27,818 nucleotides of DNA, taken from a virus (lineage: Duplodnaviria > Heunggongvirae > Uroviricota > Caudoviricetes). Position numbers: made by a program. Positions 6,001 to 9,000 of the stretch are shown here, piece after piece. Each line of letters begins with the position of its first letter. Position 1 is the stretch's first letter. Where the stretch lies: IMG/VR virus record IMGVR_UViG_2740892369_000014, one strand, 5' to 3'.

Positions 6001-9000
6001 TATGCAACTGTAGAGCAATCGCACCAAGCGTCCAGCTTGCTGATATATCTGTCTGAATTATCGCCCTGACTTTGGCACTTATGCTGGATAAACATCCACT
6101 TAAAAACAATGACATCCGTTCATCTGTTTCAAACAGAGACAGGCAGGCCATCATAAGAAACATATCCGTGGCCTCTCCGGAAAATCCCTGGCTGGTAATT
6201 AAAGCCGCAGCCAACGCAGGATTGTTGGGTTCCAGCAACAGGTAAAGCGGAATGTCAGTCAGACGAGTCCTCGTCAGCTTATGCTGACTTTCCAGATATT
6301 GACTTACGACGGATTCGCTTATATCGACAATTTTAACTTTGCCATAATGCATAAGGAAAAGCTCCCTGATGCATTTGGTGGCCAGAACGACTGAGCCTGG
6401 CTTAAGTGACAACGTATCCTTTTCAAGAAAAATATTAATTGGGGAGCAAACCATGATAACTGAACAGACAACAGCCATTATAATTTTACTTTCATTAGCA
6501 ATTGGTTAGCTCAATTATAGCCCCAAAAGGTAAATTATCATCAACACATAAGCAAAGGACTGACAGGTGTCGCCCCCCCACCAGCCGCCCATTCACCACA
6601 AATAAAAAGCCTTCAGGACTGAAGGCGTCTGTAACAACCGCACTGATAGTCTGCCAGACCCGCCATAACAAGCTGGGTCAGTATTAACTGGCAGCGTTCG
6701 CGTGAAAGGTAAGTATTCTGCGCAACCTCCCCGACTGTCGCCGGTTCGGTAACGCTTAATTCATTAAACACCACTCTGGCGGTTTCGGTCATATCCTGCT
6801 GTTTCAGCATGTCTTTTTCCCTTTTTCGGTTAACGTGACACACCAATAACTCTTGTCGAAAAAGCCAGCAAGCTGAAAGAACGGTATTAATAACCACCAG
6901 CGAATTTATTGCGCTGCTGTATATTACGGACACAAAAAAACCACCTTCCGGTGGCTTCCTTGTGCGAAAAAACTTGCATTTCGCCTCGCGATACAGCTTT
7001 GCGAAGCTTACAGGAATTCAAGCTGTTTCTGCGTAAAAAAGCAAGCTTTTTTTATCGAAATGAATCGTGCATAGGTACATAAAGCATGTGTTCAGCCACG
7101 GCTAACCAACCTGCAATACGTTTCTCACATGTGCTGAAACACCATTCCGGGTGAGTACGATTTAAACATTCTGCCATTTTTCTCTTACTCATTCCCCGTC
7201 CTTCGTACCTTTGCCGGAGAATATTGATTAGCCCGGGATATTCCCCAAGCACCTCACTGATAACGCGATCAATAATCAACGCCTCTGTGTCTGTACAATG
7301 TGACAACCAGCTCTTCTGCTTCCCTCTGGTCATATCCCGAAAAAATGCCTCAAGTTCCGGTTTTTCCAGCCCGGATTTCTTCATGCTGCGTAAAACCTCA
7401 TTAACTGCTGTTTTCGTCAGCTTTTTCGAAACCAGTAACCGGTTAAACATATTTCCGGATTTACCCCCACCGATATACGACCACCGCCCCCACATCCGTA
7501 ATTTCCCCTGGATCCAGACTGCTTCCAGCGTGTTCAGGCGTAAATGTTCGCCGCTTTTGCCTGTAATTTCCGGATATATCATATTTACGCTCACTCACTC
7601 TCAATTTTGTAAATCTTCACACCCAGCCGTCCACCAGATACTGGCTGACCGCGCACAATATTGATTTCATCAAACTGCTCGTCATCAATGAGCACTTCCG
7701 CATGCGTCAGCGCATCCAGCGGTGCTTTCAGAATGTTGTCCAGGTCACGGCGGCGCTTATCCGGTGGCTCTGCAATCACCTTTATCGCCAGCCTTCCGGA
7801 CAGGCTTAATTTCAGCCGCTGCTGGCGAACAATAAGCGCCACAGCCCGGCGATAACGCTTTCCCTCCTCCGAGATAAAATATGTGCTGCCACGGCGTCGC
7901 CAGTAAGTGTTCACCGTCGGCGGGTAAGGTAAAACCAAATCTATGAGCATCAGTCACCTCTTTTACCCAAGCACGCCAGTTGCAAAGGCGTGATCAAGAA
8001 AACGAAAAATTAAATCAACCTGAGAACCATGCTTTTCTTCGAACGCCAGCGGATCCGCATGAAGCTCGTTGTGATGCTCCCGACACAGCGGTAGCGTGAA
8101 AATATCGTGAGATTTTGTCCCCATTCCCCCCTGACCATGACCAATCAGGTGATGCGGATCGTCAGCAGGCTTACCACAACACGCACACGGCTGTGTCTTC
8201 ACCCAGTGCGTGTATTTCTCGTTAACCCAGCGGCGACGTTTAGGTCGTTTCATGAAAGATTCCGGAGACTCAGGATCAACGGCAATGCTGACCACCGTCT
8301 TTTCCTGTGGCGGTTTTTGCTGGTGAGCGTGAGGCAGCGGCGCAAGATTTTTTGTGCGCTGCTTCAGTATGCTGGTGGCGGTCTGCTCTCCCGGTACGAT
8401 GTCGCTTTCACGGTACATTGAGCGGATTTTTTCCGCACGCAACCCCAGCGAACGACGTAATACCGCTTCCGGTAGCGCGTCCGCCACCTGATTGCGGACC
8501 GCCCACCAGGATAATTCAGCCAGAGATAATTCCCGTTCCTGTGCACCACTTATTGCGTGACGTATGACGTCAATCATCCAGGCTGTCAGATTTTGTTGAG
8601 CAAGCTGCCCGAGTGATTCGGATGTCTGGTCGCGCAGCTGGTTGTCGCAGTGCCAGCACAACACCATTGCGCCGGTACCATAACGGTGAATGACGGTTTC
8701 GCTGTGATGATAATCGCCGTGTGGCCACTGGCAGGATTTAATATGGCGCAACAGCCAGTCAGACAATGCACCAGCACCACCAGCAGCACGAATCACCCGT
8801 GCGTTACTGAAAAACGGCAGCAATGTTTTGTCTTCCACTAGCGGCTGGCGAACGGCAGGAACAACCCCGGACGGCAGATTACGCATGCTTTTCGGTTCCG
8901 GCTCCACCAGTACCCGGGTATTGTGGAATACCGGCATGGATTCACGACCCGGCTTAACGATCACCAGCCCGAGTTCCGGTACCAGAACAGGTCGAAGTAA

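Follow-up and report, generated by a model that had tools for sequence, protein, structure and literature searches.

A likely pR'-tR'-type late-gene control cassette behind a DUF1133-family gene for a predicted Q21-superfamily antiterminator in a Caudoviricetes virus

Introduction

The pR'-tR' unit of phage lambda yields a short RNA, the 6S RNA, which is about 194 nt long. In phage 21, the Q-binding element (QBE) lies between the -35 and -10 hexamers of the late promoter (PMC6606751), and the family of its antiterminator, Q21, is Pfam PF06530 (PMC9388147). In Gifsy-1, IsrK is a verified 77-nt terminated RNA made just downstream of the antiterminator AntQ, with partial readthrough into the downstream region (PMC4825925). 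Another family, DUF1133, has been called Q on the basis of HHpred (PMC8136144). Here, we analyzed a DNA stretch of 27,818 nucleotides from a virus of the Caudoviricetes (IMG/VR record IMGVR_UViG_2740892369_000014), referred to as the window, and focused our attention on the minus-strand segment 7051-6934, which follows a DUF1133 gene located at 7582-7052. We consider it likely that this segment is the late-gene control cassette of a Q21-superfamily antiterminator encoded by that gene, comprising the pR' promoter, the Q-utilisation site and the tR' terminator. Very probably, it represents a known kind of device, found here in a branch of the Q family that has received little study.

Results

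The Q-like antiterminator gene (DUF1133 family; 7052-7582, minus strand) encodes 176 amino acids (aa) from the RefSeq ATG (WP_000640048.1), or 180 aa if its open frame is followed back to a GTG at 7594, and it ends in a TAA stop at 7054-7052. Against Pfam, DUF1133 was the best match (367 bits), and the protein also passed the curated threshold of Phage_antitermQ, PF06530 (35.1 bits versus a cut-off of 26, residues 73-167); PHROG 753, "anti-termination protein Q-like", was matched with an E-value of 3.5e-74. In a sequence search of the Protein Data Bank (PDB), Q21 ranked first, although weakly (E 0.18), and in this weak alignment residues SKR136-138 stand opposite the DNA-contacting S93-K94-H95 of Q21 (PMC6606751). 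The AlphaFold model of the protein has a mean pLDDT (predicted local distance difference test) of 68, the C-terminal half being confident, with residues 100-180 mostly above 85. When the PDB was searched with this model using Foldseek, the 12 best matches were all Q21 structures (probability 1.00, template-modelling scores 0.49-0.71), and the next match had an E-value above 4. RefSeq still names the protein "DUF1133 family protein". Based on these comparisons of sequence and model, the protein upstream of the cassette is a member of the Q21 superfamily, with a predicted function as antiterminator. A preliminary description of the locus had assigned it as Q mostly on its position.

Just past the stop codon, an A7 tract (7045-7051, all elements being on the minus strand) precedes a -35-like hexamer, TTGCTT (7039-7044), which is followed by a 17-bp spacer, TTTTACGCAGAAACAGC (7022-7038), a -10-like TTGAAT (7016-7021; TTnAAT in the relatives), the pentamer TCCTG, and TAAGCT (7005-7010; TAnnCT in the relatives). 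The last of these is a candidate sigma-dependent pause element at about -1 to +5, or else the true -10 hexamer. The A7 tract resembles the proximal subsite of an UP element, and A-tracts occur at the equivalent place in the type-A and Pluralibacter relatives. The two hexamers TTGCTT and TTGAAT are those to which the preliminary description had drawn attention as promoter-like.

The strongest argument that these elements belong together comes from their conservation behind homologous genes. Our comparison set comprised 110 loci with homologues, drawn from 31 species representatives and 80 viral contigs and containing 55 distinct downstream sequences. In 102 of the 110, the layout was the same: TTGnnn and a TTnAAT-like hexamer stand 17 bp apart, TAnnCT follows after 5 bp, and then come some 28 nt of conserved leader, a linker that is variable and rich in A, and a terminator formed by a GC hairpin and a T-run. 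The loci with this fixed layout span Q identities of 50-100%, represent 45 distinct sequences, and come from Escherichia, Shigella, Citrobacter, Klebsiella, Enterobacter, Raoultella, Kluyvera, Phytobacter and Pluralibacter. TTG and its distance to TTnAAT are kept in every variant, even where the flanks are unrelated (TTGCTTTTTTACGCAG in the window, TTGCAAACTGATCAAT in the relatives of the 88% type, TTGTATATTTATCCAG in Pluralibacter), and a TG dinucleotide stands at -15/-14 before TTnAAT in about 40 of the 45 variants by our tally. The -10-like TAnnCT always lies 5 bp past TTnAAT, with T1, A2, C5 and T6 invariant in all aligned variants; it thereby keeps T-12, A-11 and T-7, the positions that bind sigma region 2, and by analogy with the pR' promoters of lambda and phage 21 (PMC6606751, bioRxiv 10.1101/651190), TAAGCT may act as a pause element. 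The composite motif TTG-N20-TTNAAT-N5-TANNCT, which was learned from the relatives, occurs once in the window versus 0.02 occurrences expected.

The spacer, in turn, varies together with the protein. The putative recognition helix of the Q-like protein (window residues about 154-163) falls into classes, each having its own first 10 bp or so of spacer: TCEKRIA[G/N]W goes with TTTTACGCA, TCRRRIDQW with ACTGATCAA, TCRRRID[T/M]W with AGTGAGC[C/A]A, TCESRIDVW with AGTTGCGCG, and TCRNRIDSW with ATTTATCCA. The spacer of the TCRRRID[T/M]W class includes TGAGC[A/C], TGAGCA being the QBE hexamer of phage 21 (PMC6606751). Moreover, the 88% relatives are mosaics: their Q residues 1-136 are nearly identical to those of the window (one substitution), the C-terminal 45 residues, the -35 hexamer and the spacer have been exchanged, and the -10 hexamer, leader and terminator have been retained. 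This co-variation and these swaps fit a candidate Q-binding element located in the spacer, as in phage 21.

Equivalent units occupy the same place in other phages. In the Stx2a (Shiga toxin 2a) phage Stx2_EH1910, a lambda-type Q is followed by TTGATT...TAAATT-TGCCCT-AACGAT, a terminator, and a module with a 65-aa open reading frame (ORF) like that of the window. Homology between the two starts only after the terminator, some 25-40 nt past it, indicating that the cassette travels with its Q and that the cargo is exchangeable; the mosaic joint between the end of the Q-specific cassette and the start of the exchangeable module is thus placed at 6895-6933. In phage vB_EcoS-683R6, an 81%-type cassette lies between Q and the tRNAs and holin, in the gene order of the window. 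Two further loci, L005 from E. coli and L007 from Salmonella, carry DUF1133 genes 76-78% identical to that of the window, followed by TTGACT-18-TATATT and a full-length isrK (Rfam RF01394, 75.6 and 67.1 bits, respectively, cut-off 50), with its start 7 nt past the -10 hexamer. As AntQ is a DUF1133 protein by synteny, one member of the family has been studied by experiment, and a short RNA is proven for the slot that the cassette occupies. Altogether, four independent lines of evidence support a pR'-tR'-type unit tied to a Q gene, namely the Q21-superfamily ORF, the conserved layout, the Stx2a equivalent and the isrK slot; the preliminary description had likened the segment to the lambda 6S/StxS type of short late RNA.

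TAAGCT is followed by TCGCAAAGCTGTATCGCGAGGCG, and the conserved leader (6983-7007) has a predicted 5' stem-loop in which GCUUCGC (7007-7001) pairs with GCGAGGC (6989-6983). In Pluralibacter, where the Q gene and its protein are only about 62% and 50% identical, respectively, to those of the window, the leader TCGCAAAGCTGTATCGCG is almost unchanged. In a second leader type, CGGGACGTTAAAGCGAACTGAGCA, a stem-loop also closes near +27/+28 with different stem bases, and the same is predicted for most leader types, with stem sequences differing among them. As a 3-nt gap introduced into type B by the MAFFT alignment of leader types destroys the hairpin register, leaders were folded one by one, and the covariation support for the 5' stem-loop is suggestive.

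The cassette closes with a tR'-like intrinsic terminator (6934-6954), in which the hairpin CCACC-GGAA-GGTGG (6954-6941) is followed by T7 (6940-6934), in agreement with the preliminary description. That account was also right in locating the unit directly after the Q-like stop, but the segment measures 118 bp rather than about 110, and the end coordinate then given, 6938, clips four T's. The stem can be extended to 16 pairs (6964-6931), and the terminator scan lists this hairpin in the plus-strand orientation only; on the minus strand it was possibly missed because the extended stem swallows the T-run. A GC hairpin with a T-run lies 60-85 nt past the predicted start in all 45 distinct relatives, where the terminator has often been swapped for an unrelated hairpin (AACCCGC...GCGGGTTTT) at equal distance from the start, and variation inside window-type terminators falls mostly in the loop. 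When 91 nt of minus-strand RNA were folded, a free energy of -35 kcal/mol was obtained (z = -4.1), and none of 200 shuffled sequences folded as well. Judging from promoter geometry, a short terminated RNA of about 73-76 nt (6934-7009) is predicted to start at A7009, and the 7-nt rule used to place this start also gives the right position for the verified isrK start of the sister cassette. The cassette was rejected as coding sequence, as the length of the T-run differs by 1-3 nt among near-identical copies and no ORF across it is thus conserved.

The element is common. Among 5426 complete E. coli genomes, 1101, about a fifth, carry the 123-nt element, 615 of them at full length and 517 at an identity of at least 99%. 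In E. coli O157:H7 Sakai (NC_002695.2), an identical copy occurs in prophage Sp9, after ECs_1778 ("phage antiterminator"), where the predicted RNA corresponds to 1772433-1772508 (plus strand; window position x maps to 1772382 + (7060 - x)), and a variant copy in prophage Sp10, at about 1940530-1940690 (plus strand); the latter was considered as an isrK-type cassette and found to be of type A.

Several observations weigh against the interpretation of this segment as a pR'-tR' cassette. Compared with the promoter consensus, the hexamer pair of the window matches at 3/6 and 4/6 positions and is absent from the list of the promoter scan, and hexamer pairs with at most two mismatches occur at chance level (5 in the window versus 4.55 expected). 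In addition, TTnAAT has no A at -11, the critical base of a -10 hexamer, in any variant, the window included, and the window has AG instead of the TG extension at -15/-14 before TTGAAT. TTGCTT and TTGAAT are a candidate promoter by virtue of the conserved spacing, and because the critical -11 A is missing from TTGAAT, the exact anatomy of the promoter is uncertain. Furthermore, the co-variation of recognition helix and spacer could be explained by tight physical linkage alone. Over 6850-7100, Rfam gave no family, isrK included, at the gathering score or at E ≤10, once Phe_leader, isrD and RNAI, the sole entries at E ≤10, had been judged to be noise; at the gathering score, isrK has no match anywhere in the window. 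Lastly, neither the published Hfq-crosslinking table for Sakai (Hfq-CRAC, cross-linking and analysis of cDNA) nor the supplement of the RNase E CLASH study (cross-linking, ligation and sequencing of hybrids) has a peak or entry at the Sp9 and Sp10 cassettes; this silence is uninformative, as any peak closer than 100 nt to a gene had been left out (PMC7547250).

The missing -11 A is also the starting point for a different reading of the same cassette, which we regard as rather unlikely. TAAGCT (7010-7005) would be the working -10 hexamer and TTGAAT would not be one, so that transcription would start near 6998 and the RNA would measure about 63 nt; Q bound to the spacer would sit at the place of -35 contact and may aid initiation as well as antitermination, with no separate pause element there. 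TAnnCT does keep all three sigma-binding bases, of which TTnAAT lacks the A at -11, but no -35-like hexamer lies 16-18 bp upstream of TAnnCT in any class, whereas TTG and TTnAAT are always 17 bp apart, with TG ahead of TTnAAT in most variants. Likewise, counting from TAnnCT, a TG is found at -15/-14 in type-B relatives, but the window copy has no TG in register for TAAGCT. The sigma-region-4-like fold of Q21, which contacts the flap-tip helix (bioRxiv 10.1101/651190), would agree with Q standing in at the -35 position; nevertheless, a -10-like pause element near +1 is the rule in lambda and phage 21 (PMC6606751). Other -10 registers, and TTGAAT as a -35 hexamer, were set aside after reading by eye, with no dedicated scan: no conserved A-11/T-7 and no downstream -10 hexamer were seen.

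The cassette lies directly 3' of the Q gene and 5' of the lysis and late genes, all on one strand, and the promoter scan of the window lists no further consensus promoter in the intergenic stretch or before the lysis genes. Terminators after genes are commonplace and the hexamers are weak and occur at chance frequency, so one could argue that the hairpin merely terminates an early rightward operon after Q, that the hexamers are fortuitous, and that the late genes are driven from elsewhere. This is very improbable: the spacing of TTG, TTnAAT and TAnnCT is fixed across unrelated flanks, the leader is more strongly conserved than the coding sequence, a lambda-type Stx2 phage has a canonical pR' at this place and Gifsy-type loci have isrK there, and the scan offers no alternative promoter before the lysis genes.

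Just as hard to sustain is the idea of a small-RNA gene standing on its own (a moron), with transcription and termination that do not depend on Q and with no readthrough, since, for all the compact three-hairpin fold and the abundance of small RNAs (sRNAs) such as AgvB, AsxR and HnrS in the late regions of enterohaemorrhagic E. coli (EHEC) prophages (PMC4104026, PMC13502914), the cassette always accompanies its Q allele with the mosaic joint past the terminator, recognition helix and spacer co-vary, and the late genes, which are all downstream and on this strand, have no other promoter. Such a gene would, in any case, be compatible with an RNA that has a function in trans besides its role in the cassette. 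As for individual sRNAs, an AgvB- or AsxR-like identity was rejected, because those are convergent sRNAs located after cargo genes (PMC4104026), a region in which the window matches STnc100 instead, and EcOnc10-12 of Sakai were rejected as pR' RNAs because they lie between Rz and terminase and are now known as HnrS (PMC13502914).

On the minus strand, the genes around the cassette are ordered as DUF968 (9009-7963), RusA (7950-7591), the Q-like ORF, a 118-bp gap and the 65-aa ORF (6810-6613), followed by an AraC-like regulator (6478-5765), three tRNAs, TerB and a NanS-p-type esterase, with holin and lysozyme after these. A second terminator-like hairpin lies past the 65-aa ORF (6609-6626, minus strand), where the terminator scan reports GCCTTCAGTCCTGAAGGC then TTTTTATTTG. 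The 65-aa ORF itself belongs to PHROG 331, which has a function-less label, shows a faint TrmB-like winged-helix match, and is the first gene after pR'-tR' across Q types, including Stx2a, Stx2d, Stx2k and phiP27 phages. The AraC-family regulator, cargo just past the late promoter, has its best NCBIfam resemblances, all sub-threshold, to YdeO and GadX, and its slot is occupied by a DNA methylase in Sakai Sp9 and in Stx2 phages. The tRNA at 5661-5736 (minus strand) is called tRNA-Met (CAT) by ARAGORN and tRNA-Ile (ileZ type) by RefSeq. Elsewhere in the window, a full-length DicF antisense RNA (75 bits) was found at 19475-19526 (plus strand) in the prophage early region, and a ParD/ParE-type toxin-antitoxin pair at 9356-9981 (plus strand), on the opposite strand amid early genes.

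Rfam reports an STnc100 match at 4543-4715 (minus strand, 104.7 bits), flanked by the TerB/DUF3927 genes on one side and the gene for the NanS-p esterase on the other. At the equivalent spot of Sakai Sp10, STnc100 adjoins an AgvB match (locus L033, 1228-1482), and the window has no AgvB at the gathering score. Near 1.94 Mb, the Sakai coordinates of the 2014 Hfq-CRAC table run about 137-146 nt below those of the current RefSeq sequence (NC_002695.2): for AgvB1 the table gives 1941783-1941835, and the Rfam match lies at 1941920-1941981. Next to isrK, Rfam C4 antisense RNA was detected at 3075-3276 in L005, which also has the a1/b1 target, and at 3187-3268 in L007, which suggests, from sequence, that the DUF1133 gene is immediately followed by an immunity module of the P1/P7 kind. 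Finally, enterobacterial-type DUF1133 genes were present on two contigs with other labels, L008 (JARKOR010000130.1, a metagenome-assembled genome of Candidatus Nanosynbacter) and L019 (NZ_JBQPOM010000001.1, Vagococcus), which probably reflects contamination or mis-binning.

Discussion

The sequence elements, their conservation and their position are observed, and the model of the upstream protein has a Q21-like fold; from these, we infer a start site, a pause, a Q-binding site, an RNA and Q-dependent readthrough, following the Q21 and lambda paradigm (PMC6606751, bioRxiv 10.1101/651190, PMC9388147). In such a scheme, sigma-70 polymerase would start near A7009 by means of TTGCTT, the 17-bp spacer and TTGAAT, probably assisted by the upstream A-tract, and sigma region 2 would then re-engage TAAGCT, causing an early pause. 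If Q is absent, transcription would end at the hairpin and U-run (6954-6934), releasing an RNA of about 75 nt that carries the 5' stem-loop as well as the hairpin of the terminator. Upon prophage induction, Q would be made, bind the spacer DNA and load onto the paused polymerase, and the polymerase so modified would pass both the cassette terminator and the one at 6626-6609, reaching the cargo, lysis and morphogenesis genes.

If this proposal holds, the DUF1133 family would gain a role and a cognate control site, one that would govern the expression of lysis genes and cargo in many prophages of EHEC, enteropathogenic E. coli (EPEC) and Salmonella. Here, the cargo under control would consist of the AraC-like regulator, the tRNAs and the NanS-p esterase; a DNA methylase is part of it in related phages. 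The natural mosaics would represent ready-made specificity swaps for the Q21 family. Moreover, well-studied strains would contain a short RNA that has escaped annotation, and RNAs of this sort can regulate host genes, as is known from StxS and IsrK. By analogy with these two, the leader of about 75 nt might be a constitutive trans-acting regulatory RNA of lysogens, with the 5' stem-loop and leader under selection at the RNA level, a suggestion that we make only tentatively.

Regarding known systems, the unit resembles the lambda 6S/pR'-tR' arrangement in having a -10-like candidate pause element by +1 and a terminator soon after, and a lambda-type pR'-tR' fills the same slot before the same downstream module in Stx2_EH1910. 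However, the Q of lambda (PF03589) has an unrelated fold (PMC9388147), and the lambda -10 hexamer is a canonical TAAATT, located 6 bp before the pause element instead of the 5 bp of the window. With StxS, the pR'-tR' RNA of Stx1 and Stx2a phages (PMC7547250), it would share the production of a short RNA from a constitutive late promoter, terminated after an EHEC prophage Q, with tRNAs and cargo genes downstream. StxS differs in being a 258-nt transcript that is processed by RNase E to 74 nt, and for which Hfq binding and targets have been shown (PMC7547250). The cassette has no sequence similarity to the 933W region; blastn-short against positions 20659-20959 of 933W gave only matches of at most 11 nt.

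With phage 21 pR' and Q21 (PDB 6P18, 6P19 and 6JNX; PMC6606751; bioRxiv 10.1101/651190), the likeness extends to the predicted protein fold and the Pfam family, to the putative promoter, the -10-like element near the start and the terminator, and to a candidate Q site between -35 and -10; furthermore, one class of relatives carries a TGAGCA-type hexamer. The differences are a Q sequence identity of about 17-20%, a much shorter predicted loop between the two DNA-binding helices of the window Q, a window spacer that lacks the TGAGCA repeat, and a non-canonical -10 hexamer in the window. Compared with isrK/antQ of Gifsy-1, the cassette has no sequence similarity to isrK, whose promoter is a canonical TTGACT-18-TATATT; the recognition helix of that Q is of another class, C4-like antisense elements adjoin isrK, and orf45 and an antirepressor lie downstream in place of the cargo of the window. 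Nevertheless, both belong to the same Q family, occupy the same slot and would be of similar size (77 nt versus about 75 nt), and both combine a 5' stem-loop with an intrinsic terminator and readthrough into phage genes, the latter being predicted for the window.

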